Shown in pieces: positions 5,876 through 23,750 of a stretch of DNA of 29,008 nucleotides (position 1 is the stretch's first letter; each line of letters opens with the position of its first letter). The notes under the pieces were generated by a model, which was given only the letters and a program-made list of their open reading frames with translations, did no database searches and was not told where the DNA came from. The position numbers and the translations under genes are program-made. The stretch comes from an uncultured Methanosarcinales archaeon (GTDB lineage: Archaea > Nanobdellota > Nanobdellia > Woesearchaeales > JAGVZT01), in NCBI GenBank assembly GCA_964419615.1, contig CAYQPU010000021.1, positions 1-29,008 on the forward strand, read 5' to 3'.

Positions 5876-6718
5876 TCAGTCTTTTGACATATCTATTTTT
5901 TCTTTCTTTTTTTGTTTTGGTAAAAAGTTATCCTCTGAGATTACAGATTTACCAAGACGTTTTTCAATATTTACTCTTGTTTCCAAAGCAACTTCTCCTC
6001 CTCCCTTTGCAGATTTCTTACACTCTTTGAGTCCTTTTGAATCTTCTTCTTTTGTAATATCTGTTGTTGCCTTTTCTCCAACCATAGTAAGAATTAGTTC
6101 CCAGTCAGTCATATGATCTCTTAAGTTTTGATTCTGTCTCTTTAGACTTTTGAATTCTTTGTATTCACCAACAGTCTTACCAAAGGTTGCTTTGGATATT
6201 TCGTTTGTTAATATTGCGAATTCATTTTTTGTCTTTATTTCTCTGTTTTTCCACTCTTCTGTTAGTTCTTGTCTTATTGCAATCCCACGTAATCGTTTAT
6301 CTATCCATTCTTTAGGATAACCTTTGAGTTCATAATATTCTTTAATTCTATCTTGACCCAACTCAGGATTCTCAATTTCTTCTATTCTTTCATACCCAAC
6401 TTGAGCAAGCCATCTTTTGAATGGTTCTGCTTTTTTTGATGGAATTGATTGGATAATTCTAAAGAGTGACTTTGTGTTTGCACAGTCTGTTAATCTCTGC
6501 TTTCCATCAGATGCTTCTAATTTCAACTGTACCCAAATTGGGGACAGTTCAAGAGTTTTAAATTCTCTACTTTTAACTTTTCCCCAATACTGTCTTGGTG
6601 TTGGACTTTCTGTAAGAACTGACACAACATCTACCACAGAAAAATACCATTCTTTTTCATACCAAACTCTTCGTATTTTTTTGTCTTGGAAAACAATTAT
6701 TTTGTTTTTTTCTTCCAT
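5876..6718 (-). CDS. Bro-N domain protein (phage antirepressor-like)
   Basis: IRRVW...WYFSVVDVV, LKLEASDGKQRLTDCA, RIIQSIPSKKAEPFKRWLA motifs. Confidence 0.85.
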   Translation of the reverse strand: MEEKNKIIVFQDKKIRRVWYEKEWYFSVVDVVSVLTESPTPRQYWGKVKSREFKTLELSPIWVQLKLEASDGKQRLTDCANTKSLFRIIQSIPSKKAEPFKRWLAQVGYERIEEIENPELGQDRIKEYYELKGYPKEWIDKRLRGIAIRQELTEEWKNREIKTKNEFAILTNEISKATFGKTVGEYKEFKSLKRQNQNLRDHMTDWELILTMVGEKATTDITKEEDSKGLKECKKSAKGGGEVALETRVNIEKRLGKSVISEDNFLPKQKKKEKIDMSKD

Positions 6719-6770
6719 TTACAGTAGAATAGCATTTGATCTTTATATATCTTAAGAGTGAATGTCCAGT

Positions 6771-6894
6771 GGGAAAATGGTTAATTGTGAAATAGAGGCT
6801 CTCTATCGATTCAAAATAAGTGTTTTAGGAGATTGAACAAATCAAAAAACAAGGCTTTATGGATGATCCAGAGATATTAGATGTTATATTTTAA
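6771..6894 (+). pseudogene. Degenerate duplicate of the Lrp 3' end (direct repeat copy B)
   Basis: Encodes IEQIKKQGFMDDPEILDVIF*, versus IEQIKKEGFMDDPEILDVIV* in the intact gene; upstream part diverged, with stops. Confidence 0.8.
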
Positions 6895-6921
6895 TTAATG
6901 TTACTACTTCCAAATGATGAA

Positions 6922-6940
6922 AAACCGAAACATTTATATA
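6922..6940 (+). promoter_or_regulatory. Archaeal BRE + TATA promoter upstream of secA
   Basis: AAACCGAAA followed by TTTATATA (6933-6940), about 40 nt before the ATG at 6979. Confidence 0.6.
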
Positions 6941-6978
6941 TGTAAATATGTATTTCTAACATTAACCTTAAAATCAAG

Positions 6979-9900
6979 ATGGTAAAAAACCTATTTAGCA
7001 AAGCACTTCAGAATTCTCATGATGAAATCATGGAGAAATACTTATCCTTAGTTGACCGAATTAATGATTTAGAGCAAGAGTTCTCAGAATTAAGTGATGA
7101 TGAATTAGCAGCCAAAACTCAAGAATTTAGAAAAAGAATTGTTATTGACGGAGAAACCCTTGATGATCTTCTCCCAGAAGCTTTTGCAACTGTTAGAGAG
7201 GCGAGTAAAAGAACAATAGGACAAAGACATTATGATGTACAATTAATGGGGGGAATCGCAGAGCATGAAAGAACCATAGCAGAAGTGAGAACAGGGGAAG
7301 GAAAAACCCTAATGGCTACTCTACCAATATATCTTAATGCTCTTGATGTTAATCCTGATTGGATAAAAGCAGCAGAAAAAATGTTTGGTGGAAAAAGTAA
7401 AGATGAGTGGGAGTACCAAAACATAATTGCAGGAAAAACAGTCATACCCATTGGAAAGGGTGTACATCTTGTGACAGTAAATGACTATTTAGCACGAAGA
7501 GATGCAAGATGGATGAGTCCCATATTCAAGTTTTTGAGAATGAATACGGGTGTTTTACAAAGTAATTCAAAAACTGAACATGGTAAATATTCTTACATTG
7601 TCACTCCTTTTGCATATTCTCCTGACGAATTTAATAATGGTCTTACTTTGGTGCCTCGAGAAATAACCTACCAAGAAGATATTACATATGGATCAAAAAA
7701 TGAGTTTGGACATGATTATTTAAGAGATAATATGAAAATGAGTCTTGGGGAAAGAGTACAAAGAGGGCACCATTTTGCCATTATTGATGAAGTGGATAAT
7801 GTTCTAATTGATGATGCACGTACACCATTAATAATTTCTGGTCCAAAGCCTGGATCAGTTGATATGTTCCAAACAATTGACACAGTTGTTAAACAATTAA
7901 AATCAACTCATTTTGATATTGAAGAAAAAAACAGAAGCTTAAGCCTTACAATAAAAGGAGAGCAAAAAATGAATCAACTACTTCAAGATATTGGGATAAC
8001 TGATGAACCATTATTTAAACAGAATGGAGACAGTCTTGATTTGGTGGAGCTTACTATCCCAGAAGTAGTATTAAATGGATACATTCAACAGTGCTTAAAT
8101 GCAAATTTTATTTACAAAAAAGGAAAGGACTATGAAGTGGAGGGAGACAAAGTTATCATTGTTGATCATTTTACAGGCAGACTTATGCCTGGTAGGAGAT
8201 GGTCAGATGGATTACACCAGGCAGTAGAAGCTAAAGAAGAAGTTCCAGTTGAACCAGAAAGCACTACTTATGCTACAATAACTATCCAAAATTACTTTAG
8301 AATGTATGAGAAACTTGCAGGGATGACAGGAACAGCTATTGAAGATTCAGAAGAATTTGGGGATATTTATAAACTTGATACTATTGAAATACCAACTCAT
8401 GTTGATTATCTTGCATCATTGCCTGAATCTGGACTTGAATTGGTGAGGACCAAAGATATGGAAGGTTTTGATATTGAATACTGGAGCCATACAGATGATC
8501 CAGATCAAAAGCCAATTTTTCACAGAAGACAAGATCGTCCAGATACAATATATAAAACCCCAGAAGGAAAAGTAAGAGTTATCTCATCAGAAATTTTAAG
8601 ATCCTATGTGCATGGAAGACCTGTTCTAACTGGCACTACTTCAGTGGAAAAGTCTGAAATCATATCGGACAGATTAGGTAAAGAATCGATTCAAAAATTA
8701 TCTACTTGGCTTCTTTTAAGAAACCATTATCTTCAGCAAAGGAGCAGGAAACAAGATGGAAAAAGGATAAAAGAACTTAAAGAATTTGATGAAGAATCCG
8801 ATGGAACAGCAATTCCTTTAAATAATTTGGATATGTCTAGGTTAGAAGAAAAAGCCCTTGAACTTGGATATGATCAGCCAATAGTAGATTATGTTGACAC
8901 CATTTTAGATGCTTTGAATGTTTTTGATTTTGGACAAAGAGAACAGAGTCGGGAAAGACTTATTTATGCTTTAGAAAATGGGGTACCTCACAATGTCCTA
9001 AATGCAAGACATGAAGCACAAGAAGCTCAAATAATTGCTGGTGCAGGTGCTTTTGGTGCTGTTACAATAGCTACCAATATGGCCGGCAGAGGTGTTGATA
9101 TTAAGTTGGGAGGAGCTCTGCCAGATGAAATAATCATAAAAGTGAATGATTATCTTTCTAGAAATGGTTATGAAGAACCAACAGTCTTATCTCTTGATGA
9201 AAAAATTGATGGTATTGGTATCTTAGCTGAAGAAAACATAGATATGGATCAAGATATTTTATCTTTTATAGAATATTCAAAAGAAAGGCAAATGGTTATG
9301 GAACTAGGCGGATTAGATGTTATTGGTTCTGAGAGAAACGAAGCAAGAAGAATTGACAATCAGCTTAGAGGAAGGGCAGCAAGACAAGGTGAACCAGGTA
9401 GAACTCGTTTTTGCATATCTTATGAAGATGAACTTTTACTTAGGTTTGGCTCTGGAGCACCTGTTAAATTATTGAATCACCTTGTTGATATTGACCCTTA
9501 TTTTCCAGTAGATCATAAATTGATTTCAAAATTTATTGAAGGAGCTCAAAGTAGAGTTGAAGGTGCTAACTTTGATGTTAGAAAACATCTACTTGCATAT
9601 GATGATGTTCTAAATAAACAAAGAAAAACAATCTACGGATTCAGGGACAAGGTACTGGCTGAACTTTATCTAACAGACATAATGTTTAAGCATTTTAAAG
9701 AAGAAGTGTATTTTAGAGCTGCAATGGAATTGGAAGTTGATGAAACTGTGGAGGAATTGGCTGCTGAAATAAATGCACAAGGTGTAATAGTTGATAAAAA
9801 TGCAGATGAGTTGGAAATTGATGAGAATGCAAGAGAATTATTTTTATCTTTGAACAGATTGCAGCCATCAATGCAGATAGGAGAACACATGGTGGACTCA

Positions 9901-10545
9901 TTTTTTAATACTCTATTAACAAAAGAAATGCAATACCAGGATCCAAATCAAATATCTGATGAAGCATGGAAGATTGTTGAAAAATACCTAACCAAAACAA
10001 AACCTAAGAAAATAGCTGAGGAATTTTCAAAGCATGCAAGGTTAAACTTTGAATTGATAGCACAGCAAATAGGATATGAATTAATGGGAAAGTTCTCCAA
10101 GATCCAACCAAAAGTGAGGATTGGCATTCTTCCACACCCAGAATTGTATCAGTTAGCTAAGGAAACCGCTGAGATAGGAGAAAATCCTGAGAAGCAAAAA
10201 GAATTTTTAGAAAAAAGACAATCAATAGAACAGAAACTTTTTGGGGAAATGCAAGTAACAGATATTTTTAGAAAAGGTATTGTAAGAGATGCTGGTCATC
10301 TCTGGATGGATTATTTATCTTATGCAGAAGCTGAGAGGGTAAGAGTAGGATTACATGCTTATGGACAAAGAGATCCTCTTGTTGTATACAAAACAAGAAG
10401 TCATGCAGAATTTGAGAATGTTGTTGGTGAAATAAGAAATAGAATTGCAGAGAATTTATTCAAGGTTGCCCATAATAAATACACGCAAGCTTGTCAACCA
10501 ATGCAATTCAGAGTTCCAGGTCAGATAACAAGACCAAAGCCTTAA
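6979..10545 (+). CDS. secA: Preprotein translocase ATPase SecA (bacterial type, 1188 aa, with insertions, no C-terminal Zn finger)
   Basis: RTGEGKT, VTVNDYLARRDA, DEVD...DARTPLIISG, DGLHQAVEAKE, TIQNYFRMYEKLAGMTGTA, ATNMAGRGVDI, RRIDNQLRGRAARQGEPG, AYGQRDPL. Confidence 0.97.
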   Translation: MVKNLFSKALQNSHDEIMEKYLSLVDRINDLEQEFSELSDDELAAKTQEFRKRIVIDGETLDDLLPEAFATVREASKRTIGQRHYDVQLMGGIAEHERTIAEVRTGEGKTLMATLPIYLNALDVNPDWIKAAEKMFGGKSKDEWEYQNIIAGKTVIPIGKGVHLVTVNDYLARRDARWMSPIFKFLRMNTGVLQSNSKTEHGKYSYIVTPFAYSPDEFNNGLTLVPREITYQEDITYGSKNEFGHDYLRDNMKMSLGERVQRGHHFAIIDEVDNVLIDDARTPLIISGPKPGSVDMFQTIDTVVKQLKSTHFDIEEKNRSLSLTIKGEQKMNQLLQDIGITDEPLFKQNGDSLDLVELTIPEVVLNGYIQQCLNANFIYKKGKDYEVEGDKVIIVDHFTGRLMPGRRWSDGLHQAVEAKEEVPVEPESTTYATITIQNYFRMYEKLAGMTGTAIEDSEEFGDIYKLDTIEIPTHVDYLASLPESGLELVRTKDMEGFDIEYWSHTDDPDQKPIFHRRQDRPDTIYKTPEGKVRVISSEILRSYVHGRPVLTGTTSVEKSEIISDRLGKESIQKLSTWLLLRNHYLQQRSRKQDGKRIKELKEFDEESDGTAIPLNNLDMSRLEEKALELGYDQPIVDYVDTILDALNVFDFGQREQSRERLIYALENGVPHNVLNARHEAQEAQIIAGAGAFGAVTIATNMAGRGVDIKLGGALPDEIIIKVNDYLSRNGYEEPTVLSLDEKIDGIGILAEENIDMDQDILSFIEYSKERQMVMELGGLDVIGSERNEARRIDNQLRGRAARQGEPGRTRFCISYEDELLLRFGSGAPVKLLNHLVDIDPYFPVDHKLISKFIEGAQSRVEGANFDVRKHLLAYDDVLNKQRKTIYGFRDKVLAELYLTDIMFKHFKEEVYFRAAMELEVDETVEELAAEINAQGVIVDKNADELEIDENARELFLSLNRLQPSMQIGEHMVDSFFNTLLTKEMQYQDPNQISDEAWKIVEKYLTKTKPKKIAEEFSKHARLNFELIAQQIGYELMGKFSKIQPKVRIGILPHPELYQLAKETAEIGENPEKQKEFLEKRQSIEQKLFGEMQVTDIFRKGIVRDAGHLWMDYLSYAEAERVRVGLHAYGQRDPLVVYKTRSHAEFENVVGEIRNRIAENLFKVAHNKYTQACQPMQFRVPGQITRPKP

Positions 10546-10779
10546 CTACTTAACCAAATCTTCAATAGGCTTATCTTGTTTCTTAGCTTCTTTCATTAAT
10601 TCTTCAGCTTCTTTTTCAAGATCAACACCTAGATCTTTAAGACCTTTGATGTGCATTTGCATTAATTGCTCAACAATCTGCAGGATCTTATACATCTCCT
10701 GTCTTTCTTTAACTAATGTTGATAATGCTCCTTTATGAAAACCTACTTGTTCATCCTTACTTGCTTCTTTTTCTGCCAT
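10546..10779 (-). CDS. Small coiled-coil hypothetical protein
   Basis: 77-aa ORF with GGTGA SD-like element; amphipathic helical pattern. Confidence 0.7.
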   Translation of the reverse strand: MAEKEASKDEQVGFHKGALSTLVKERQEMYKILQIVEQLMQMHIKGLKDLGVDLEKEAEELMKEAKKQDKPIEDLVK

Positions 10780-10813
10780 ATTTATTCACCTATGTTTGTT
10801 TCTACCTCTTTGT

Positions 10814-11695
10814 TTAAATCTTTTTCGATAATTTAGGTTTTTTAATTTGATAACCCATTTGTACAAGAAACTCCCTTGCTGTGTTAACTCCATCCTCAAA
10901 TGCATGAGGAGAATAACTTCCCACCATCTTTCTTTTGTAGAATGGTTGCATGTCTTCTCCAATTAATTTTGGGCTGTCACTTAAATAAGCTCTTGCAAGT
11001 TTGTGTTGACTTGACCTTCCCAGAGCATCAATAATCTCTGCTGCTGCATACTCCACACCTCTACTAGCAAACATTTTCTCAATCACACCAGTTAATCCGA
11101 ATAACATTTGTATTCTATCATGATTTGGAGTCTCCTCTTGTTTTAAGAATTCTAATTTTGCAGTCAAAAAATCTAAAGGATGTGGAACATGATAGGTTGA
11201 ACCAAACATCTGTGCTTGTACTGCGTTCTGAAAAAATTCAGGTGTAACAATATATTTTCCGAAATGAACATTTGGCAGATCTGTTTGCCCTAGCCAAAGA
11301 TCAACTTCTACAGGAGGTTCACCCCATCTAATAGCAGCAGACACTTTATCTCTACCTCCATTTTGGTAGCTAACACTTGAAGGTTTATACTTTGAAAATT
11401 CAAATAAGTCAAAAAGAATGCATAGACTATCTTCACTGACAGCAATCAGATCAAGATCAACAGCCTTTTCTGGATCATCATTAGGTAAGGGATTTGGTAC
11501 ATACAATACATCATGTTTTAAAGCTAAAGCCAATAGGCCAAATTCATCAACAGACAAAACCTTTCCAGAATCACACATTTCAGCAACATGCATAGATAAA
11601 TCTAAAGCTTTTATCACATCATGCTCTCTATGATTATCAACTAATGCATCCATAACAATATCTTCACTTATCCTTGGTTTCTTTTTCTTTGCCAT
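10814..11695 (-). CDS. Putative Pol-beta-fold nucleotidyltransferase-like protein
   Basis: G..A.AL, DLDL (DxD), VDLW (third acidic residue), HVPHPLDFLTAKL resembling the 'v.spedli..Kl' motif. Confidence 0.45.
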   Translation of the reverse strand: MAKKKKPRISEDIVMDALVDNHREHDVIKALDLSMHVAEMCDSGKVLSVDEFGLLALALKHDVLYVPNPLPNDDPEKAVDLDLIAVSEDSLCILFDLFEFSKYKPSSVSYQNGGRDKVSAAIRWGEPPVEVDLWLGQTDLPNVHFGKYIVTPEFFQNAVQAQMFGSTYHVPHPLDFLTAKLEFLKQEETPNHDRIQMLFGLTGVIEKMFASRGVEYAAAEIIDALGRSSQHKLARAYLSDSPKLIGEDMQPFYKRKMVGSYSPHAFEDGVNTAREFLVQMGYQIKKPKLSKKI

Positions 11696-11697
11696 TT

Positions 11698-12540
11698 TTA
11701 TTCTAAATACCTATTTGATTCTAAAAATTCTCTTGCTACAACATTACTTTCATAGAATGGAGCATCTGTTGGACCAACTAATGAACTATCTATGCTCATG
11801 TAAATCATAGCAAGTCTTGGAACAGTTATCTCATTTAACTGATGCTTTATTGATTCCGCAATGCTTACTACTCCTTTTCCTTCCTTTTCTACAAATTCTT
11901 GTTCTAGAAAATCTGTTAAATTAAGAACATCAGCAGCGATTCTGTAATCAGCTTTGTCAAATCCAAGCCTTGCTGACAAAAACCTGTAAACATCAGGAAC
12001 ACAAATTGGAATCCCCCAAACATTAGCTTTCCATCCATTACTAATAAAACGTGGTTCCACCAACTGTTCTCCATATTGTACTTTTGGTTCCTGACTCATT
12101 GTCCATATAAAAATATCAGTATCTCTGTTAACCTTTCCAACTCTAACATCCTTATAACCTGGTGACATTGAAGTATGATCTCTAAATTCTACTTGTACCA
12201 GGCTACCTGACAAACCTTCCTCTGCACCATAGCCTTTTGCAATCATCTCAAGGTTATGACTTTTTTTGTATCTGATGTCACAATTAATACCAACACTTTT
12301 CATAATTGCCCAGACTGCAAACTGATCAACAAACACATATTGAGGTTTTAAAGTAAAAGGATCAAAAGGTTCTAAATCATCATATGCATCAGATTCTGGA
12401 ATTGAGAATCTTTCCTCAAGATTCTGTGCAGTTTTTAAAAACACATTAAACACTTCAGCAGTTGCTAAACTCATATTTTTTGGTTTTGTAACCTGCAAAT
12501 AGTCTTGATAATCATCAGAACTCATATTATCAAATATCAT
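11698..12540 (-). CDS. Distant paralogue of 10814-11695, catalytic motif degenerate
   Basis: Matching segments NLEMIAK/DLDLIAV, DTDIFIW/EVDLWLG, VPDVYRFLSARL/VPHPLDFLTAKL, AREFLESNRY/AREFLVQMGY. Confidence 0.45.
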   Translation of the reverse strand: MIFDNMSSDDYQDYLQVTKPKNMSLATAEVFNVFLKTAQNLEERFSIPESDAYDDLEPFDPFTLKPQYVFVDQFAVWAIMKSVGINCDIRYKKSHNLEMIAKGYGAEEGLSGSLVQVEFRDHTSMSPGYKDVRVGKVNRDTDIFIWTMSQEPKVQYGEQLVEPRFISNGWKANVWGIPICVPDVYRFLSARLGFDKADYRIAADVLNLTDFLEQEFVEKEGKGVVSIAESIKHQLNEITVPRLAMIYMSIDSSLVGPTDAPFYESNVVAREFLESNRYLE

Positions 12541-12641: not shown

Positions 12642-13508
12642 ATGTCAGAATTATTCATAAAAAACAATCAATTAATCCCAGAAAATGAATGGAAAACAAT
12701 AATTCAAAATCTAAAATCAGAATCATCTACAAAACCTGTCAAACAAGCTCTATTTGATGCAATAAAAAAAAGATCTGGAAATAAAATAGGATTATTGTTC
12801 TCAGGAGGAGTTGATTCAACAGTGCTAGCATTAATCTTAAAAGAACTTGAAATTGACTTCACATGCTTTGCAATTGGAATAAGAAGAAGTAAAGATGTAA
12901 ATGTTGCAATAGAAATTGCAGAAAAATACAACTTGGATCTAAAAACAAAATACTTCACCTTAGAGAAAATAGAAAACACAATAGAAAATCTAATCAAAAT
13001 CTTTCAAACAGATGACTTTGTAACAATCAGTGTTGGATCTGTTATATATGATGCAGCAAAACTTGCAAAACAGCATGGCCACACAAAAGTTTTAACTGGG
13101 CTTGGATCTGAAGAAATATTTGGCGGATATTATCGACATAAAACCTCAAGCAATGTTAATCAAGAATGCTGGAATGGAATGATAAACACACTATGGAAAA
13201 GAGACTTACAAAGAGACACAACAATTGCAAAAAACCTACACATGCAATTCTCAACTCCATTTCTTGACAAAGAATTAATCATGGCAGCAATGCAAATTCA
13301 GGGAGAACAAAAAGTAAAAGATGGTCTGGCAAAACTACCATTAAGAAAAATAGCATTAGAAATTGGTCTAGAAAATCAGTATGCAATGAGAAAGAAAATA
13401 GCAGCACAATATGGCTCTGGATTTGACAAAGCAATAGAAAAAATAGCAAAATCAAAAGGATTTAAGTATAAATCTGATTATCTAAAACAAGTATTAACCA
13501 AGATGTAG
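12642..13508 (+). CDS. Asparagine synthase-like ATP pyrophosphatase domain protein (no glutaminase domain)
   Basis: LLFSGGVDS PP-loop, LTGLGSEEIFGGY, TPFLD, KLPLRKIA, RKKIAAQYGSG. Confidence 0.85.
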   Translation: MSELFIKNNQLIPENEWKTIIQNLKSESSTKPVKQALFDAIKKRSGNKIGLLFSGGVDSTVLALILKELEIDFTCFAIGIRRSKDVNVAIEIAEKYNLDLKTKYFTLEKIENTIENLIKIFQTDDFVTISVGSVIYDAAKLAKQHGHTKVLTGLGSEEIFGGYYRHKTSSNVNQECWNGMINTLWKRDLQRDTTIAKNLHMQFSTPFLDKELIMAAMQIQGEQKVKDGLAKLPLRKIALEIGLENQYAMRKKIAAQYGSGFDKAIEKIAKSKGFKYKSDYLKQVLTKM

Positions 13509-14579
13509 TTCAACAACGTCCTTATCCTTAACAACATAATCTAAACTCCTAATCTTTAATCCAGGATACTTTGCACTCCCCCAAATTCTAACATACTTAA
13601 ATTTTGCAACAAAATCCTTATGCAACTTTTTACAAATATCTCTTACTGTGGCTCCGTTTTTAACAATCAAAGCTTCATCCATATCTGGTTTTTTACCTGG
13701 TTGCTTGCAATAAATTCTAATAATACCTAATCTACTAAACATTAATTCTTTTAGGTCTGTTAAATCCTCATCATTTTGAGCAGAAATACATAAATCTGGC
13801 TTAATCTTTTTCTTAATCTGAGCAAGCTTCTTATCATTAAGCAAATCAATCTTGTTTAATATGATAATTGCAGGAACATAAACCTTATTATCTTCTAAAA
13901 CATCTATTAACTGATCTTCATTAATCTTATCTCTAATCAACACATCTGCATTAGTGACCTTAAACTCTTTTAGAATAGCAATTATGGTCTCATCCTGCAT
14001 ATTGAGTTTTTTAGTAGAACTCAAATCAATACCACCTTTGAATTTCCTTTTAATTTTAATATCAGGTTTTCTAGCATTAATCCTAATCCCAATATTATAC
14101 ATCTCATCCACAATAATTTTAAGGTGCTTAGGTTTTGTTACATCCAAAATAATTACAATCAAATCAGCAATCCTTGAAACAGAAAAAATTTCCTTACCTC
14201 TACCTTTTCCTTTAGATGCTCCCTTAATAACTCCAGGTACATCTAAAACCTGAATATCAGCTCCTTGATAAGTAAGTGCACCAGGTATAACATCTAAAGT
14301 TGTAAAATCATAAGCACCAACTTTTGAATCTGCATTTGTCAGTTTGTTAATTAATGTAGATTTCCCAACAGAAGGAAAACCAACTAAAACAACAGTTGCA
14401 TCCCCAGTCTTTCTAACAGAATAACCAGTTCCCTTTTTTCCACCAGATGAAGATCCTTTTTCCCTTAACCTGGCAAGCTTTGCTTTAAGTAATCCAATAT
14501 GGTGCTGAGTAGCCTTATTATACTTAGTTTTCTTAATCTCAGCTTCAATATCCTGGATTTTATCATCATAACCTGCCAT
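13494..14579 (-). CDS. DRG/RBG-family (Obg superfamily) GTPase with C-terminal TGS domain
   Basis: Likely start MAGYDDK at 14579; TKYNKATQHHIGLLKAKLA, GFPSVGKS, YDFTT, DVPG, NKID motifs. Confidence 0.95.
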   Translation of the reverse strand: MAGYDDKIQDIEAEIKKTKYNKATQHHIGLLKAKLARLREKGSSSGGKKGTGYSVRKTGDATVVLVGFPSVGKSTLINKLTNADSKVGAYDFTTLDVIPGALTYQGADIQVLDVPGVIKGASKGKGRGKEIFSVSRIADLIVIILDVTKPKHLKIIVDEMYNIGIRINARKPDIKIKRKFKGGIDLSSTKKLNMQDETIIAILKEFKVTNADVLIRDKINEDQLIDVLEDNKVYVPAIIILNKIDLLNDKKLAQIKKKIKPDLCISAQNDEDLTDLKELMFSRLGIIRIYCKQPGKKPDMDEALIVKNGATVRDICKKLHKDFVAKFKYVRIWGSAKYPGLKIRSLDYVVKDKDVVELHLG

Positions 14580-14641
14580 AAAGCAAAGGAGGAAAAAACT
14601 GTTTAAAATACTTTTGAAAAAAAAAGGTGGGCTCAGAGGGA

Positions 14642-14787
14642 CTTTCAACAACCTTTTACAAAGTTTTAACCAAAGGTAGCACATTTATGTGCTTGGGTGG
14701 TGATAATCTTGCATTTCAAGACATCACCACATGGGACTACAAATCCCATTGTTTTGGTCAAACTTTTACCCTTGGGTAAAAGGTTGA
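14642..14787 (-). other. 146-nt T-loop (59/60) BHB-type intron of tRNA-Lys, multibranched
   Basis: Central helix TTCA/TGAA, bulges AAT and AGT, 11-bp CAACCTTTTAC/GTAAAAGGTTG stem, three internal hairpins. Confidence 0.9.
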
Positions 14788-14974: not shown

Positions 14975-17830
14975 CTAGCTTGCATAACCCGCTAATGCAG
15001 ACTGATCACCATTAAAAACATTAGCATCAGTCTTGCCATGAGTTTCTGTTGCAATTCCATTAGTTATTCCATAAACAGGTTGACAATCTCCACAAGTCTG
15101 CCAGAAATCCCAGGTGTCCCAAGTATCCGGAATTGTTGGACAATCAACACCCCAGTGTGCAATCCACAATGGATATTCACCAAATTGTTCCTTAGCTGCA
15201 CTAGGGTTAAATCCATTCCAAAAACCAACACTTGTATATATCAAAGGTTTTTTACCGGTAGCAGCTTCAACAGTTTCCAGCCAATCTTTCATATTCCTAA
15301 ACCAATCATCAGTTGAGGCATGTATCATTTGCTGATCAGTTGGATCTATCTCTAAATCCAAAACAGCAGGTAATTCTCCAAAATCTCCTTCCATCATTGA
15401 CAGGAATTTTTGAGCTTGACCAACACCATCAACATAAGGAACAAAAAAGTGATATGCACCTCTATACACTCCCTGTGCTTTTGCTTCTCTCCAATTCCTC
15501 TTAAACTCTGGATCTTCTGTTGTACTATATGTTGCTCTGATAAATGCAAAGCCAACACCATAATCAGGGTCACTTACAACTTCATGCCAACGGATATCTC
15601 CTTTCCACTTTGAAACATCAATACCAGTAGCAGCATCTTGGCCCCCACAAATAGTAGTAGAGCCACCTCCTCCAGCACCCCAACCACTGCCTCCACTTCC
15701 ACCACCAGAGCCTCCACCACTTCCTGAACCTCCAGAGCCTCCACCACCACCTGTACCTCCTGTTGCACAGATACCACTACAACCATCTTGTGGTTCATCA
15801 AACATATGATCTTTAATCAGTTCATAAGCAATATAAAAATCAACTTTTTCTTTTCTAACATCATTATAATCTTGGGACTCAACCAAAAGCCAGCATCTTC
15901 CTTTTCTTTCAACAGAACCATATATCAGTAAAGGAGTTTGACCATCAAAAGCCATATCATCTCTATACTGCATGCAGTTATAGTCCCCATAATAGTCACA
16001 GAACTCTAATGTTCTTGTATCAGATGGTTGACAAGTATAAAAAGTCCTACCATTAAAATTCTCATCAAAATCAATAGGACAAGGAAAGTATTCTTGAGGT
16101 TCTGCATCTCCTTCAGGACAATCAGCACCACCAGATGATTGACTCCTTACTGGGCTTAATGGATTTGGTGGTTTAGGAACAGTAGCTCCACCCGGTACCC
16201 AAACGTTGTAGGTATATTGGTTTGTTTCATATTCAACAGTATACTCTGTGCAAGTTGCTGTCTCCATGTCCCAAGGATTACAATCTGGCTGACCAACGCA
16301 CACCTTTGGAACTTCCATTGTTGCACCAGACTGATCACACAGTAAAAAGGATTCATCAACATTAATACCAAAACCTTTGAATGTGACATCTGCTCTTGCC
16401 TTAAAACAAGCATCTTCTGGTTCTAACCTATTCCTACCAAAAAGATCAAAGTGTTGAGTAGCATCTTTGAAATCTAGTACGTCAATTTTGCACCAATCAT
16501 CACTGTCAGGAGTACAGACAGCTTTAATAACCATGTCTTTTTCAGGTTTCTCTGTTGGACTATCGGTGTCTCTCTTACCTACTTCTGGCAGTCTATCCTC
16601 TTTTGTCCATAAGCAAGAATCACCATTATCATAAAAGGCAATCTTGTTGTCTCTCATCTCTCTTTCAAATTCAAAATTCTCATACCAAAAATAGTAAGTT
16701 GTGCATGTACAATTACCAGAAGGAGGCTCATCTTCACATCCACCTGTACACTCATGACAACCACCACATGAATCTGTCTGTCTTACAACAGGTGTTGGAC
16801 CAACACATACATCTCCATCTCCAACACCACCTTTACCAATACCTGTTGATTTAATGTATAATTCTCCAGGAATCTCAGAAGGAGGTGGCGGAGGAGATTT
16901 GGTCCATCCCTCACAACTTTGACAACCTTCTGTTAATGTCCATTCAGGCAATTGAAGAATTGTATCACTCTCCTCAGTACACCTCAGTACAACACCAAAC
17001 GGAGTAAAGTGTGTTGTCTCAGCCTCAATCACATTCTCATCAACATCAACAACAGATGAATCCAAAGAAACCCACATATCAAGATTCTTGTCATAAAAAC
17101 CAAGCATTAAATCTTCTTCTTTGATTGTTAATGGAATATCTTTTTGATGATAACTCATAATCAATTTAACTGGCTGGGAAAACTGTGCTCCATCAGGAAG
17201 TCCCCTATAAGCAAGCATACCCATCAAAACTCTATTAGACAGTCCCTCAAATTCCCTGTCCAAAAGCTCAATACCAGGTCTATCTCCACCAGTCATTGTG
17301 GTTCCTGGAGGAACAATAATCTGGAATCTATTATCATGAGATGTAATTAATGTCTCATCACCTGCTTTGATAGGTTCATATAACTTTCTTGGAACAACAT
17401 AATTTTGTTCTTTAAATGTAATAGTAGCAGGACTCTTGGTCATCTCAATTGGATATTCTAAATCAACATCAATAGTGACATCATTAATATCAACTTTAAC
17501 GGTAATATCCTCCTCTTCTACTTCAAACCCTTCTTCTCTGAATGCCTCAAAACCTTTGGTACAGGCAACAACATTCTTAGATATATAATCTATTAACCAA
17601 TCAGTACTTATATCCTCATCAATACCATAATAAACCATGGCATCATTTGAGACAAGTTCTAGACAAGAACCCATAAAAAAATTCAAGGCCTCTTGAGTTG
17701 TTTTTGTATCACTAATCTCATGAGTATTTGGCTCACCACCTTTATTTGAAACCATAAACACTGCTGCAAACGCAAGTAACAAAACAATAGCTAAAATCAG
17801 GAAAATACTTGTCTGGGATTTTGAACTCAT
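14975..17830 (-). CDS. Large surface protein: class III (pilin-like) signal, ZU5-like domain, Cys-rich region, Gly/Ser linker, C-terminal GH25 muramidase
   Basis: KSQ + hydrophobic helix; GH25 motifs at about 14975-15625: GIDVSKW, FAFIRAT, RGAYHFF, PAVLDLE (DxE at 15350-15358), PLIYT, LWIAHW, WDFWQ, DANVF. Confidence 0.9.
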   Translation of the reverse strand: MSSKSQTSIFLILAIVLLLAFAAVFMVSNKGGEPNTHEISDTKTTQEALNFFMGSCLELVSNDAMVYYGIDEDISTDWLIDYISKNVVACTKGFEAFREEGFEVEEEDITVKVDINDVTIDVDLEYPIEMTKSPATITFKEQNYVVPRKLYEPIKAGDETLITSHDNRFQIIVPPGTTMTGGDRPGIELLDREFEGLSNRVLMGMLAYRGLPDGAQFSQPVKLIMSYHQKDIPLTIKEEDLMLGFYDKNLDMWVSLDSSVVDVDENVIEAETTHFTPFGVVLRCTEESDTILQLPEWTLTEGCQSCEGWTKSPPPPPSEIPGELYIKSTGIGKGGVGDGDVCVGPTPVVRQTDSCGGCHECTGGCEDEPPSGNCTCTTYYFWYENFEFEREMRDNKIAFYDNGDSCLWTKEDRLPEVGKRDTDSPTEKPEKDMVIKAVCTPDSDDWCKIDVLDFKDATQHFDLFGRNRLEPEDACFKARADVTFKGFGINVDESFLLCDQSGATMEVPKVCVGQPDCNPWDMETATCTEYTVEYETNQYTYNVWVPGGATVPKPPNPLSPVRSQSSGGADCPEGDAEPQEYFPCPIDFDENFNGRTFYTCQPSDTRTLEFCDYYGDYNCMQYRDDMAFDGQTPLLIYGSVERKGRCWLLVESQDYNDVRKEKVDFYIAYELIKDHMFDEPQDGCSGICATGGTGGGGGSGGSGSGGGSGGGSGGSGWGAGGGGSTTICGGQDAATGIDVSKWKGDIRWHEVVSDPDYGVGFAFIRATYSTTEDPEFKRNWREAKAQGVYRGAYHFFVPYVDGVGQAQKFLSMMEGDFGELPAVLDLEIDPTDQQMIHASTDDWFRNMKDWLETVEAATGKKPLIYTSVGFWNGFNPSAAKEQFGEYPLWIAHWGVDCPTIPDTWDTWDFWQTCGDCQPVYGITNGIATETHGKTDANVFNGDQSALAGYAS

Positions 17831-17836
17831 AATAAT

Positions 17837-17875
17837 ACCTCCTTTTATTATTTCAATCTAATAAGGCCTTATAAA
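17837..17875 (-). promoter_or_regulatory. TATA box and strong SD for the GH25 surface-protein gene
   Basis: TTTATAA at 17869-17875 preceded by an A-run; GGAGGT at 17837-17842. Confidence 0.6.
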
Positions 17876-17896: not shown

Positions 17897-18247
17897 TTAA
17901 ATTTTATTTAACACAACAAAATTGGCAACTTGGGTTCCTGGCCAAGATTCTTCTGCAACTAAATCCTCATTTAATCTATGGGCATATTGTGTTGAGTGGC
18001 CGCTATCAAACATAATTGCTTTTGTGCTTCCAAGTTGCAATAGTAAAGCTGCAGCTTCATATGGAACCACATCATAGCATTTCATAAAATACATTATTTT
18101 CCCATCGCTGGATAAACCTGCAACTGTCTTTGCACCTGTTTTCCATGTTCTCTTATCATTTGGTTTTAACATATCTTGTTGTAGAACCGTTGGTATTTTA
18201 GGTGAGCCTGTTGTGTCATAAATGAGTGTTTTAACCCCAGAGATCAT
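17897..18247 (-). CDS. Phosphodiester glycosidase (NAGPA/DUF2233)-like C-terminal fragment; may be a remnant
   Basis: GSPKI, KTVAGLSSDGK, EAAALLLQLGSTKAIMFDSGHST match the RTAIG...dG / A.ll..lG...AinLDGGGSt pattern; only the C-terminal half; no signal peptide. Confidence 0.6.
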   Translation of the reverse strand: MISGVKTLIYDTTGSPKIPTVLQQDMLKPNDKRTWKTGAKTVAGLSSDGKIMYFMKCYDVVPYEAAALLLQLGSTKAIMFDSGHSTQYAHRLNEDLVAEESWPGTQVANFVVLNKI

Positions 18248-19265
18248 ATGATTCAACATAAGCAACTGTTTGTTGAGTTGCACTGTTTGCATCTGCTAAC
18301 CAGTCTTCCCATTCCTGATCTCTATCTAAATGTTCCCAATAGTTTTCATAAACATAATCAACTTGTGCAGTATTCTTCCAATTAATCCTTGATCTATCTT
18401 GTTCTTTCAATGATTTGAGCATTAAAACTCCTTTCTCATCATACTGGCTAAAGTCTCCAATAGGAATATTCTCAGGATAACCCTCTAAACCAATGTCACG
18501 ATAATAAAGCACAGTTCCAAAGACAGTCTCTGCCATATTAACCTCTTTTTCAGCATAGTAGTTTGCCAGTGCAATACATATCCCTTCATTAGATCCACTA
18601 ATGCCCGATAAATCTCCACTTCCATGTTCTTCATTAAACCCATGGCATGTTTCATGCACAATAACTTCTGTGTTAACATTAGCATAATCATAAATACTTA
18701 CAATAGGATGAGCATAATAAGTTCCTTCTCCTAGTGAACCATACTCAACATAAGTCAATGTTTCAATCATAAAATCGATCCTGCCTGAACTATACATATC
18801 CTCCAGATGCTCGAGCAAAGCCTCTTTATTAACCACATCAGATCTTATATTAACAAGTGAACTAATCAAAGAATCAACCTGATCTCTTTCTCGGATCAGA
18901 TCCATAAACTCTTCTGCCTCTTCAACAGAAAGTGATGTAAGAACAGGTTCCATTATTTCTTGATTTTGCTCAATATCTTCAGAATCCAGAATATTATTCA
19001 TCTCTAAAACATTAAGTGCATCCTGAACATTCTCACTAAATGTAATTCCATCTTTTTTATTCTCACCAATCCCAGTACAGTCAAAACTCCCATCAGTTTG
19101 TTCTTCACAATTATCATTGTGACAGTCTGTATCCAATTCCCAGAATGTTGTATCTAGTCCCGATGATTTCCTACAAACCAATATATCACCCGAAGCTGAA
19201 CATGATTGTTCATTAAGAATATCACATGGATCATTGAGATCAGGCTTATCTGAACCACTACCTCC
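18231..19265 (-). CDS. In-frame continuation of the 19266-21299 ORF: Gly/Ser linker, Cys-rich module, HExxH zinc-peptidase-like domain
   Basis: Frame open from 19265 (GGSGSDKPDLNDPC...) to 18231; HETCH at 18642-18656 with a downstream NEG (gluzincin-like third ligand). Confidence 0.7.
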   Translation of the reverse strand, partial: GGSGSDKPDLNDPCDILNEQSCSASGDILVCRKSSGLDTTFWELDTDCHNDNCEEQTDGSFDCTGIGENKKDGITFSENVQDALNVLEMNNILDSEDIEQNQEIMEPVLTSLSVEEAEEFMDLIRERDQVDSLISSLVNIRSDVVNKEALLEHLEDMYSSGRIDFMIETLTYVEYGSLGEGTYYAHPIVSIYDYANVNTEVIVHETCHGFNEEHGSGDLSGISGSNEGICIALANYYAEKEVNMAETVFGTVLYYRDIGLEGYPENIPIGDFSQYDEKGVLMLKSLKEQDRSRINWKNTAQVDYVYENYWEHLDRDQEWEDWLADANSATQQTVAYVESYDLWG

Positions 19266-21299
19266 TCAATCTCCACCTCCTCCTAAAGCAATATCAACAT
19301 CCTCTTTTTTAACCCAAATGTCTAGATTCCATTGGCGCCCATTATGATTGATCAAATGTTGTGCTTCGAGCAACAACCAGCAAACATCATCCACCATAGC
19401 AGAACCAAAAATCAAAAGTTCTGTACTCTCATCATAAGATACAAAACTTAATTGATCCATTTCTGGATAATCACCGTACATATCTGCAAACTCATCTCTG
19501 CTCCTTGTTTCAAATGAATTACTTGCTGTAAAAGTTAGTCCTTTATAATCCTCTTCGTATTCTTCACAAGGAGTACTGTATGTTGGGTGAACAAAAGTGG
19601 TCACAGCAATTCTATCTTTCATATTCTTTGTTGTACCATCAGTAATACCTGTTCCTTCTCTATACTCCCATTTACATACATTTTGATAGCACTTACAATC
19701 AGCCATCTTCACCTGTCTTGGAGTACCTCCAAAAAATGGCATCTGCTTTGACTCACCATCATTTTCACACACATAATAAGAACCTTCTTTTTGAATTCCA
19801 AACCCACTATATTGGACAGTTGATCCTTGTTTTAAAAGTGCATCTTCTCCATCATTTGTTGCCTCTAATTTGAAAGTTAAAACATTAGCCTCTAATTTTT
19901 CATCTAAAATCAAACAAGTGTCATCTTCTCCAGACCAACACCTAGATATAAGCAAAATATCTGCAGTAATATCATCTGGATCAGTGTTAGTATTAGTTTC
20001 AGAATCGATCTTTTCTATTTGTACACTATCCTCAGTGTTTTCATCCCAAATACAAGAACCACCCAAACCTTCAAAAGTTATTTCAATAGCTCTATCAATT
20101 TTAAATTCATTAGGTTCATAATAATAATAATAAAATGAATCACACTTACAAGCAGGAATTCCTCCGCCCTTAGGTTCTGGACATTGTCCACCAACTTCTC
20201 CAGAACACTCTCCCTTACAATCAGAACAATCTACAACATCATATTTTATTTGAATAGGTCCTTTACAGGTATCTATCCTATCTCCAATACCATTACCTTG
20301 AGTAACTTCCACTCCCTCAATAAACAACTTCTCTCCACCACCACCTGGAACAGACCCATAAGCCCAACCCTCATCAGGCTCACAATCCTCTTTGATAGCC
20401 AGAACAATTGAATTCTCAGCTATGTCCTCTAATTCAGTACATTTAATAACAATTGCATATTTAGTGAAATGGTATGTTTCAGCCACAAGCTTGTTTTCTA
20501 CAACATCAACTTGGGTTGGAATTGCAAGCCAAACACCAGTAGGTTCATCATAATAAGCAATTCGTAAATCTTCTTCTTTCACAGTGAAAGGTACTTCTGA
20601 ATCATTATAAAGCATAGTTAACTCAACTGGTTTTGAGAATTTGGCACCATTAGGATAAGCATCAAACGCAAGCATATTCATTACAACGTTGTTCTTAAAT
20701 CCATAATCTTCCCTGTCAAGAATTTTAAAACCAACTTCTTGTTTGTTATTATTAAGAATTCTAGCCCCAGGAGGAATTATCATTTGAAATTCCCTATGTG
20801 GTGATGAGAGAATAGTCTCTTTGTTTTCTTCAATCTCAGTCCACTTAATTCTATGAAGAATAAAGTTTTGATTTTTAAATTTAATAATTGTGTCGGCCTT
20901 AACCATTGTTATTGGATATTCTAACTCCACAGTTAATGTTTTACCTGTGATTTCAACATCAACAACAATATCCTCTTTTGTAATCACAAATCCTATTTCC
21001 TCGAACATTTTCAAATTGTCAGTACACCCTGGCAAGTTAGTCTTTATCTGCTCTTCAATAAAATCATTGCTAACACCAGAAAGAATCCCATAATCATGGA
21101 CAGCTTGGTTAGTAGTATCTTCCAAACAAGATCTTATTAGAAAATTGAGTGAATCTTGATTTCCTTTAAGATTGATACTTCCTTCAACATCAGGTTTAAC
21201 TAGAACTGATTCTTTACTAAACAAAAATAGACTGATACCTGCTAAAAGAACAATTGCAATAATGAGAAAAACCGCTATCTGACCTCTTTTTTTGAACAT
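19266..21299 (-). CDS. Large surface protein, paralogue of 14975-17830 (KRGQ class III signal, ZU5-like, Cys-rich), ending at an in-frame TGA inside a Gly linker
   Basis: Colinear similarity with the GH25 carrier (SCLE, LEYPI, PPG, LDRE, KEEDL, HFT, YGDY, LLI.GS, CWLL); ends ALGGGGD-TGA. Confidence 0.85.
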   Translation of the reverse strand: MFKKRGQIAVFLIIAIVLLAGISLFLFSKESVLVKPDVEGSINLKGNQDSLNFLIRSCLEDTTNQAVHDYGILSGVSNDFIEEQIKTNLPGCTDNLKMFEEIGFVITKEDIVVDVEITGKTLTVELEYPITMVKADTIIKFKNQNFILHRIKWTEIEENKETILSSPHREFQMIIPPGARILNNNKQEVGFKILDREDYGFKNNVVMNMLAFDAYPNGAKFSKPVELTMLYNDSEVPFTVKEEDLRIAYYDEPTGVWLAIPTQVDVVENKLVAETYHFTKYAIVIKCTELEDIAENSIVLAIKEDCEPDEGWAYGSVPGGGGEKLFIEGVEVTQGNGIGDRIDTCKGPIQIKYDVVDCSDCKGECSGEVGGQCPEPKGGGIPACKCDSFYYYYYEPNEFKIDRAIEITFEGLGGSCIWDENTEDSVQIEKIDSETNTNTDPDDITADILLISRCWSGEDDTCLILDEKLEANVLTFKLEATNDGEDALLKQGSTVQYSGFGIQKEGSYYVCENDGESKQMPFFGGTPRQVKMADCKCYQNVCKWEYREGTGITDGTTKNMKDRIAVTTFVHPTYSTPCEEYEEDYKGLTFTASNSFETRSRDEFADMYGDYPEMDQLSFVSYDESTELLIFGSAMVDDVCWLLLEAQHLINHNGRQWNLDIWVKKEDVDIALGGGGD

Positions 21300-23066: not shown

Positions 23067-23750
23067 TTATATGTAGTCAATTGTTGCCTTTGCAAGTATA
23101 TCCTGACTACTGTGAATCTTTACTCTTGGATGCTCAGGTTGTAGATTTGGTAAATCAGTACAAGCCAACAAAACATGATCAGCACCTTCTTGATGAAAGC
23201 TGTCAATCATATTGTTCAATTTATCTCTATCATCAAATTCCTGCATATTATCTACTAACCTACCAATCATCCCATCAAGTTCTCTCTGGTCACCGACATT
23301 AGGCACCCAGTACTCAATTCCCACTTGGTCTAGTTTATTTGAGTATAATCCATCATTAAGTGTACTTGATGTTGCAAGTAATCCGACCCTTGATACACCT
23401 TCTCTTTGTAAGTACTTGACACTCTCATCAATAATACTCAACATCTCTACTTGTACATTTTCTCTAATCCCGCCTATGTGAGCATGTAAAGTATTACATG
23501 GCATGACAAGCACTTCTGCTCCACCATGTTCGAGTAATTGAGCTGAATCAACTAAGTATGGGAAGTAATTTTCTATACCTTCTCCGTTTGAAAGAAGTTT
23601 CTTCTCTATTCTTTTTGGAATAGGAACTAAATGAACCAAAATATCTGGATTCTGCTTTGTTCCTTTCCTTTTAGATTCTTCAAATAACTGCAATTGAAAC
23701 CTAGCTGTTGTTTCATGTCCAAATCCACCAATAACACCTATTGTTTTCAT
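23067..23750 (-). CDS. Aspartate/glutamate racemase family protein
   Basis: IGVIGGFG, MPCNTLH and LACTDLP (both catalytic Cys), GLLAT. Confidence 0.9.
   Translation of the reverse strand: MKTIGVIGGFGHETTARFQLQLFEESKRKGTKQNPDILVHLVPIPKRIEKKLLSNGEGIENYFPYLVDSAQLLEHGGAEVLVMPCNTLHAHIGGIRENVQVEMLSIIDESVKYLQREGVSRVGLLATSSTLNDGLYSNKLDQVGIEYWVPNVGDQRELDGMIGRLVDNMQEFDDRDKLNNMIDSFHQEGADHVLLACTDLPNLQPEHPRVKIHSSQDILAKATIDYI

Follow-up and report, generated by a model that had tools for sequence, protein, structure and literature searches.

A GH25 muramidase mounted on a carrier with a predicted self-cleaving ZU5-fold hinge in a Woesearchaeote

The window analysed in this study is a stretch of 29,008 nucleotides, which makes up the whole contig C21 of a 1.48-Mb genome of 64 contigs (G000), and the gene in question is an open reading frame (ORF) of 951 aa at 14975..17830 on the minus strand. 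Its product carries a complete GH25 lysozyme domain at the end of a long conserved N-terminal carrier. With reasonable though far from complete confidence, we interpret it as an exported surface protein of a Woesearchaeote, in which a conserved self-cleaving carrier bears an exchangeable head, here a muramidase that would act on the walls of neighbouring bacteria. The whole architecture is common to six full-length homologues and is therefore not due to chance. It runs from a prepilin-like signal and membrane helix through a helical/beta N-domain, a ZU5-fold domain, a Cys-rich stalk, a weakly SH3b-like barrel and a Gly/Ser linker to the GH25 head (Table 1). The frame opens with the first ATG after the upstream stop. 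As was stated in a sequence-only reading of this DNA that preceded the present analysis, it has its own TATA-like box and Shine-Dalgarno sequence.

Glyco_hydro_25 (PF01183) was the sole Pfam family found on the protein, at residues 737-911, with an E-value of 1.1e-36 and a score of 127.2 bits against a cut-off of 27, and positions 1-170 of the 180 in the profile were covered. This hidden Markov model (HMM) result bears out the GH25 assignment of the sequence-only reading, and the motifs named there were all found, i.e., GIDVSKW at residues 736-742, LDLE at 824-827 and DANVF at 935-939. The domain is complete and its catalytic residues are conserved. The best solved relative is Cellosyl, the Streptomyces muramidase M1 (PDB 1jfx), which matched the C-terminal 231 residues with an E-value of 1.8e-30; unlike the archaeal protein, it is a free secreted enzyme of 217 residues. 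In this alignment D738, D825, E827 and D935 pair with Asp9, Asp98, Glu100 and Asp198 of Cellosyl, of which we take the first three to be its catalytic residues. The four archaeal residues are invariant in the six full-length homologues, which are otherwise only 37-53% identical. The head is predicted to cleave the bond between N-acetylmuramic acid (MurNAc) and N-acetylglucosamine (GlcNAc) of peptidoglycan. The Pfam scan of the 951-aa protein found no wall-binding domain.

The closest free-standing GH25 relatives are about 40-46% identical and are bacterial wherever the source is named, including Deltaproteobacteria, Gemmatimonadetes/Longimicrobium and Acidobacteria, and many of them bear a LysM or PG_binding_1 fusion. 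When 76 GH25 domains were placed in a maximum-likelihood tree, five carrier heads grouped as one clade among bacterial-type GH25s, with a value of 96 in the Shimodaira-Hasegawa-like approximate likelihood ratio test (SH-aLRT). Two more carrier-GH25 proteins, P0018 and P0022, formed a separate clade (99), and the branches with strong support would also allow a single origin. The position of the five-head clade amid bacterial enzymes, together with the kept active site, argues that the head is bacterial in origin, and that since its acquisition it has been under selection and kept functional through considerable divergence.

The genome is rated 99.4% complete and 2.3% contaminated and carries archaeal small- and large-subunit rRNA genes. 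The orthologue from the same genus (GenBank MBS1267194.1), which lies on an 86-kb contig, is labelled Candidatus Woesearchaeota archaeon. The rRNA genes and this label agree with the earlier view that the organism is a DPANN-type archaeon. Mur ligase (PF08245) and SEDS proteins of the FtsW/RodA type (PF01098) were searched in this genome and none was found. The archaeon thus makes neither murein nor pseudomurein, and the substrate would be foreign peptidoglycan, which upholds the earlier claim that the target is not its own wall. A role as an autolysin for its own murein or pseudomurein was considered and ruled out on the same ground. SLT, NlpC/P60 and Amidase_2 were also searched in this genome and were not found. 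Contig C2 (L012:1494-3080 (-)) encodes a 528-aa protein that combines a lipobox-like signal (LLALKGC) with a Thr/Ser/Pro/Ala-rich stalk and, at the C-terminus, an M23 peptidase domain (48 bits). This protein could be another candidate surface peptidoglycan hydrolase; the HxxxD/HxH metal ligands of M23 are not obvious in it by eye.

The fusion gene directly adjoins an archaeal-type DRG GTPase gene (MMR_HSR1_Xtn and TGS domains) in three genomes of two genera (G000, G001 and G007), and in G001 a paralogous carrier comes next as well. The tetranucleotide profile of contig C21 correlates with that of the rest of the genome at r = 0.992, which ranks 20 among the 43 contigs of at least 10 kb. A chimeric contig around the gene, the danger pointed out in the sequence-only reading, is ruled out by the synteny in three genomes and by the whole-contig composition.

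The N-terminus of the protein, MSSKSQTSIFLILAIVLLLAFAAVFMV, contains a K-S-Q motif (K4-S5-Q6) followed by a hydrophobic helix of 22 residues, and this is the pilin-like N-terminus described earlier. In the family, the N-terminal pattern is M-x-K-K-[G/S/A]-Q-[ILV]-[ST] and then a hydrophobic helix, which we take to be the archaeal class III (prepilin-type) signal pattern. [KR][GAS]Q was present within the first 20 residues in 106 of the 145 family N-termini, the -1 position holds G in 48 members and S or A in 30 each, and Gln6 is invariant in the six full-length orthologues. The genome encodes an A24 prepilin peptidase (PF01478, 61.4 bits) on contig C15 and a weaker second copy on contig C2. 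With Ser ahead of Gln in this protein, processing by a prepilin peptidase is likely but less than certain.

Residues 1-300 were modelled with AlphaFold2 from an alignment of 45 sequences, with a mean predicted local distance difference test (pLDDT) score of 89. The model consists of a helix at residues 4-28, two long helices and a beta sheet at 36-147, and a beta sandwich at about 145-283. Cys56 and Cys90 of the N-domain are each kept in 148 of the 151 aligned members. The Cys-rich stalk and the long Gly/Ser linker of the sequence-only reading were both found: 26 of the 32 Cys of the protein fall within residues 284-700, mostly in the stalk (284-576), and the linker occupies residues 691-724. 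The stalk is presumably disulfide-rich, and a structural search with its model gave no convincing match.

According to the model, the beta sandwich has the ZU5 fold. The Pfam ZU5 model (PF00791) gave no match to the 951-aa protein at an E-value of 0.1, and the neighbouring paralogue scored 17.4 bits at a cut-off of 21; since the cut-off was not reached, the domain is filed as a ZU5 fold and not as a member of Pfam ZU5. The ZU5-like domain called earlier is thus upheld by structure prediction and not by the HMM. In the model, H274-F275-T276 lies at the turn that links the two final strands (267-274 and 277-281). HF[ST] was found at the end of the ZU5 domain in 134 of 147 members (91%), with H in 144, F in 137 and S/T in all 147. 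PIDD self-cleaves at HF/S directly after each ZU5 domain in the protein, and Nup98 has the same HFS motif, in which Ser is the nucleophile and Phe a buried anchor, and its fragments remain associated (PMC3210808). Given the family-wide H-F-[S/T] motif, the chain is probably cut, with the head kept in place non-covalently or open to release, and not simply anchored. The earlier picture of a lysozyme anchored on a flexible arm keeps its surface-type build and its Gly/Ser linker, and plain anchoring is probably an oversimplification.

Nearly every genome of the phylum possesses the carrier family, and the lysozyme is rare among its cargoes. Alignment with the 677-aa ORF of the window (19266..21299), with the paralogue in G001 and with P0004 showed that the conserved carrier spans residues 1 to about 690, and that relatives of the carrier end in nothing, a Cys-rich tail or FN3 repeats in place of GH25. 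An exhaustive profile search over 1.84 billion cluster representatives recovered the carrier in 7,375 representatives at E <=1e-3, including 219 at <=1e-30. In these proteins of 200-1,700 residues, the first ~290 residues of the carrier always lie at the extreme N-terminus. When the 300-residue handle was used in a word-indexed search aimed at longer proteins, only 2 matches came back, which reflects a limit of the index, and a feature search of the ESM Atlas with the handle was uninformative (best score 0.75). Among 42 long members scanned with Pfam, most had no Pfam domain in the head, and the cargo recognised was Peptidase_C39_2 in three, GH25 in two, and GDSL lipase, NlpC/P60, C92 amidase and CARDB in one each. 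GH25 was present in 3 of 41 close relatives and in 6 of 401 genomes of the phylum, in four of these six within open frames of 918-1,160 residues. The carrier family was found in 284 of 301 high-quality genomes of the phylum, usually in several copies; the unpublished genomes G262 and G263, each of which had matches, count towards this tally and underlie no other claim.

The full handle with the ZU5 domain is limited to a subset of families, and most of the phylum-wide matches come from the first ~145 positions alone, which are nearly universal. This unit, made up of the signal and the N-domain with its two conserved Cys, occurs alone or with other C-termini in most genomes of the phylum; examples in G000 are C7:3319-4068, C36:10349-11119 and C18:22381-23931. 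It seems that the pilin-like unit of ~145 residues is ancestral and that ZU5 was added in some lineages. G000 has four full handle members: C21 carries two, and a tandem pair lies on C31. The tandem genes (L011:2625-5399 (+), 924 aa, and L011:5476-6756 (+), 427 aa and cut by the contig end) showed no Pfam domain in either product.

A conserved N-terminal part with variable C-terminal effector domains is a feature of polymorphic toxin systems, and it was found here. An immunity gene directly downstream was not found, and the next gene downstream encodes the DRG GTPase. An archaeon without murein needs no immunity to lysozyme. As the immunity gene is missing, we regard the carrier as working like a polymorphic toxin system but do not file it as one.

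In the mechanism we propose, the class III signal would carry the protein across the membrane, and the hydrophobic helix would serve as its anchor in either the membrane or a pilus-like fibre. The ZU5-fold domain would then break the bond between Phe275 and Thr276 through an N-O acyl shift, as PIDD, Nup98 and FIIND proteins do, and the last strand (277-281) would hold the C-terminal fragment of 676 residues non-covalently on the stub left at the anchor until that fragment is pulled or shed. This fragment would comprise the disulfide-rich stalk, the SH3-like barrel, the 34-residue Gly/Ser tether and the muramidase, which would hydrolyse the MurNAc-GlcNAc bond of peptidoglycan. As neither murein nor pseudomurein is made by the archaeon, the enzyme would act on the wall of neighbouring bacteria, and it is plausible that the archaeon has a bacterial host or prey. 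The protein may serve for breaching a partner or prey bacterium, for killing competitors or for the release of wall fragments.

Several observations weigh against this interpretation. GH25 is present in only six of the 401 genomes and is therefore not a core trait of these archaea. The residue at -1 of the signal is Ser here and not the canonical Gly or Ala, which makes processing uncertain. The Pfam ZU5 model stays below its cut-off, and the best structural match is the ZU5 domain of ankyrin, which does not self-cleave. The 3-kb segment around the gene is compositionally atypical, at the 4th percentile of tetranucleotide correlation. Activity, processing and localisation are all extrapolated beyond the sequence.

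The match to non-cleaving ankyrin ZU5 domains speaks for an uncut chain, in line with the anchored arm of the sequence-only reading; ZU5 would then be a structural spacer as in ankyrins, with the lysozyme covalently tethered for life. We give this a minor though real chance. A spacer offers no structural reason for HF[ST] to be kept so strictly or for S/T to be kept in every member, and the motif stands exactly where PIDD, Nup98 and GAIN domains cut (PMC3210808).

It is also possible, if doubtful, that the protein is a feeding tool, which digests peptidoglycan debris or wall material shed by cells, provides amino sugars and D/L-amino acids to an archaeon whose own biosynthesis is limited, and involves no specific bacterial host. 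The small genome and dependent lifestyle, the Asp/Glu racemase and uridine diphosphate (UDP)-GlcNAc genes on the same contig, and the rare, patchy and accessory-like occurrence of GH25 would all agree with this; the cell-attached, long-reach build and the lytic heads elsewhere in the family (NlpC/P60, lipase) suit intact neighbours instead. Feeding and attack on neighbouring walls would involve the same chemistry and differ in their purpose.

The DPANN in culture have hosts that are archaea. This, and the absence of a recognised peptidoglycan-binding domain, could suggest that the GH25 head acts on a glycan other than murein, such as pseudomurein, an archaeal host's glycan, chitin-like material or the archaeon's own surface glycans. 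We consider this improbable, because all four residues of the Cellosyl-type active site are retained and the closest relatives are typical bacterial lysozymes, many with LysM or PG_binding_1. In addition, as far as we are aware, the only activity known for GH25 enzymes is that of a beta-1,4 muramidase, whereas the N-acetyltalosaminuronic acid of pseudomurein is joined by beta-1,3 links. A mis-binned or mis-assembled bacterial fragment, or a transferred gene in decay, as the GC content of the gene's 3-kb segment (40% vs 34% for the genome), its low tetranucleotide correlation and a bacterial-type SecA on the same contig might suggest, is rejected as extremely improbable, since three genomes from two genera share this fusion beside the archaeal DRG gene, the carrier half is restricted to this archaeal phylum, the reading frame is uninterrupted and no catalytic residue varies.

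Surface release by such a hinge has been proposed for bacteria. Zhang, de Souza, Anantharaman, Iyer and Aravind (2012) unified ZU5, GPS and the Nup98 domain, and predicted that N-terminal ZU5 autopeptidases release bacterial polymorphic toxins at the cell surface, as well as bacterial surface proteins with glycohydrolase, lipase or phosphodiesterase heads (PMC3482391). By analogy, the archaeal carrier family fits this logic, as both consist of a large secreted protein with ZU5 close to its N-terminus, then a long stalk and, at the C-terminus, a head that varies. The carriers of that study are bacterial, with a Sec signal or TcdB/TcaC export and with RHS or other repeats, whereas the present protein is archaeal and has a class III signal, its own N-domain, a Cys-rich stalk and no immunity gene. 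The C-terminal motif of the superfamily is CxH in that study (PMC3482391) and H-F-[S/T] in the archaeal family. PIDD, UNC5CL, Nup98 and the FIIND of NLRP1/CARD8 (HF/S or SF/S; PMC3210808) share with it the ZU5 beta sandwich and the H-F-S/T at the domain end. In these eukaryotic cytosolic signalling proteins, the nucleophile is Ser/Thr and the fragments stay together after the cut (PMC3210808), whereas archaeal cleavage is predicted from the motif, to which the sequence similarity is limited. The GAIN/GPS domain of adhesion G-protein-coupled receptors is of animal origin and precedes a seven-transmembrane receptor, and the archaeal domain matches it less well than ZU5.

Peptidoglycan hydrolases of archaea are not new. 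A GH25 muramidase was described for Aciduliprofundum boonei (Metcalf et al. 2014, cited in PMC12352652), and Strock et al. (2025) reported that Nanoarchaeota are rich in peptidoglycan hydrolase genes and that haloarchaeal peptidoglycan hydrolases kill bacteria (PMC12352652). These cases resemble ours in that a murein-less archaeon has a horizontally acquired, bacterial-type hydrolase of patchy distribution; the present protein differs from the hydrolases of Strock et al. by its carrier of ~700 residues, whose hinge is predicted to cleave itself. Only proteins in which a wall-binding domain was recognised entered the count of Strock et al., who detected Sec/Tat signals on about a third of them (PMC12352652). 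The 951-aa protein, which has no wall-binding domain in Pfam, would thus have escaped such a screen. Vigneron et al. (2022) described 'vampiristic' Woesearchaeota with GH23 lytic transglycosylases (PMC9723730), which belong to the same phylum-level group and share the idea of an attack on bacterial walls. These enzymes are GH23 and no carrier architecture is described for them, and G000 has no SLT.

The sequence-only reading placed the novelty in the anchored modular build. This holds in part, because bacterial ZU5 carriers with hydrolase heads were predicted in 2012 (PMC3482391), and what is new is the archaeal version with a class III signal and its spread. The enzyme class, its occurrence in archaea and the ZU5-carrier principle are already published. 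The archaeal class-III-signal carrier, its near-universal spread, the strict HF[S/T] hinge and the lysozyme mounting were not found in papers or domain libraries. The same-genus orthologue is labelled 'hypothetical protein' in GenBank, and no domain library names the carrier. A literature search joining ZU5 with DPANN, Nanoarchaeota or Woesearchaeota returned no paper, with subscription journals outside its coverage.

Table 1. Positions of the features described in the text, in coordinates of the window
Feature	Position	Strand	Basis
Whole gene, carrier-GH25 fusion, 951 aa	14975..17830	(-)	ORF list and six full-length homologues, 37-53% identity
TATA-like box TTTATAA, ~40 nt upstream of the ATG	17869..17875	(-)	Read from sequence; putative promoter
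Shine-Dalgarno GGAGGT, 7 nt ahead of the ATG	17837..17842	(-)	Read from sequence
Class III (prepilin-like) signal motif K-S-Q and hydrophobic helix, residues 1-28	17747..17830	(-)	Model helix 4-28 and family motif
N-domain, two long helices and beta sheet, residues 36-147	17390..17725	(-)	Model pLDDT >90
ZU5-fold beta sandwich, residues 145-283	16982..17398	(-)	
H274-F275-T276, predicted self-cleavage site, cut F275/T276	17003..17011	(-)	Motif and fold; cleavage predicted
Cys-rich beta stalk, residues 284-576	16103..16981	(-)	Beta-rich model, pLDDT ~78
Small beta barrel, weakly SH3b/GW-like, residues 577-682	15785..16102	(-)	
Gly/Ser linker, 34 residues, 691-724	15659..15760	(-)	Model pLDDT <50
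GH25 muramidase core, residues 737-911 (domain extends to 951)	15098..15622	(-)	PF01183 and 1jfx alignment
Paralogous carrier, 677 aa, ends GGGGD then TGA within Gly/Ser linker	19266..21299	(-)	
In-frame continuation after TGA: linker remainder and 344-aa domain, HExxH (VHETCHG), no Pfam family	18231..19265	(-)	
Out-of-frame 131-aa ORF, C-terminal half of NAGPA phosphodiester glycosidase domain	17897..18292	(-)	PF09992 E 1.6e-4, below cut-off

The paralogue adjacent to the lysozyme gene has a different head behind the same type of linker. The sequence around its stop reads GGA GGA GGT GGA GAT TGA GGA GGT, and a frameshift leads from the HExxH-containing ORF into the NAGPA-like ORF. The region 17897-21299 (-) looks like a second carrier-cargo gene, broken by a single GGA-to-TGA change and a frameshift, or like an assembly or population variant.

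Elsewhere in the window, a complete bacterial-type SecA (6979-10545, 1,188 aa, with all four SecA Pfam domains) is encoded in this archaeal genome, within a stretch of ~6.7 kb (5876-12540) that also holds a Bro-N protein and two unknown ORFs. The stretch is missing between the same flanking genes in G001, which belongs to the same genus, and SecA_DEAD was above its cut-off in only 2 of 41 relatives (G000 and G005). An Asp/Glu racemase gene (23067-23750 (-)) lies 5 kb from the lysozyme gene in this genome without Mur ligases and is not at the matching place in G001. It is pure speculation that the racemase might help in the use of D-amino acids from foreign wall peptides. The DRG GTPase (13494-14684 (-)) is listed with 396 aa, and its start is probably 35 codons later (MAGYDDK...), giving ~361 aa as in G001 and G007.

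A bolder and decidedly tentative idea is that the handle is a minor-pilin-like module on a type IV pilus or surface fibre and the ZU5 hinge a force- or contact-triggered, GAIN-like latch. Exchangeable heads would then be fired into, or left on, partner cells throughout the phylum, and GH25 would mark the lineages with bacterial partners.

DPANN make up about half of archaeal diversity, and we know of no bacterial host that has been demonstrated for them. A lysozyme able to act only on bacteria, on a carrier present in 284 of 301 genomes, would provide a concrete molecule for contact between DPANN and other cells. If the H-F-[S/T] hinge does self-cleave, it would be a prokaryotic, extracellular counterpart of the animal ZU5/GAIN latch and a general device for the delivery of hydrolases. 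Surveys that demand a known wall-binding domain would undercount the peptidoglycan hydrolases of archaea, and the heads of this carrier family may supply new antibacterial enzymes.

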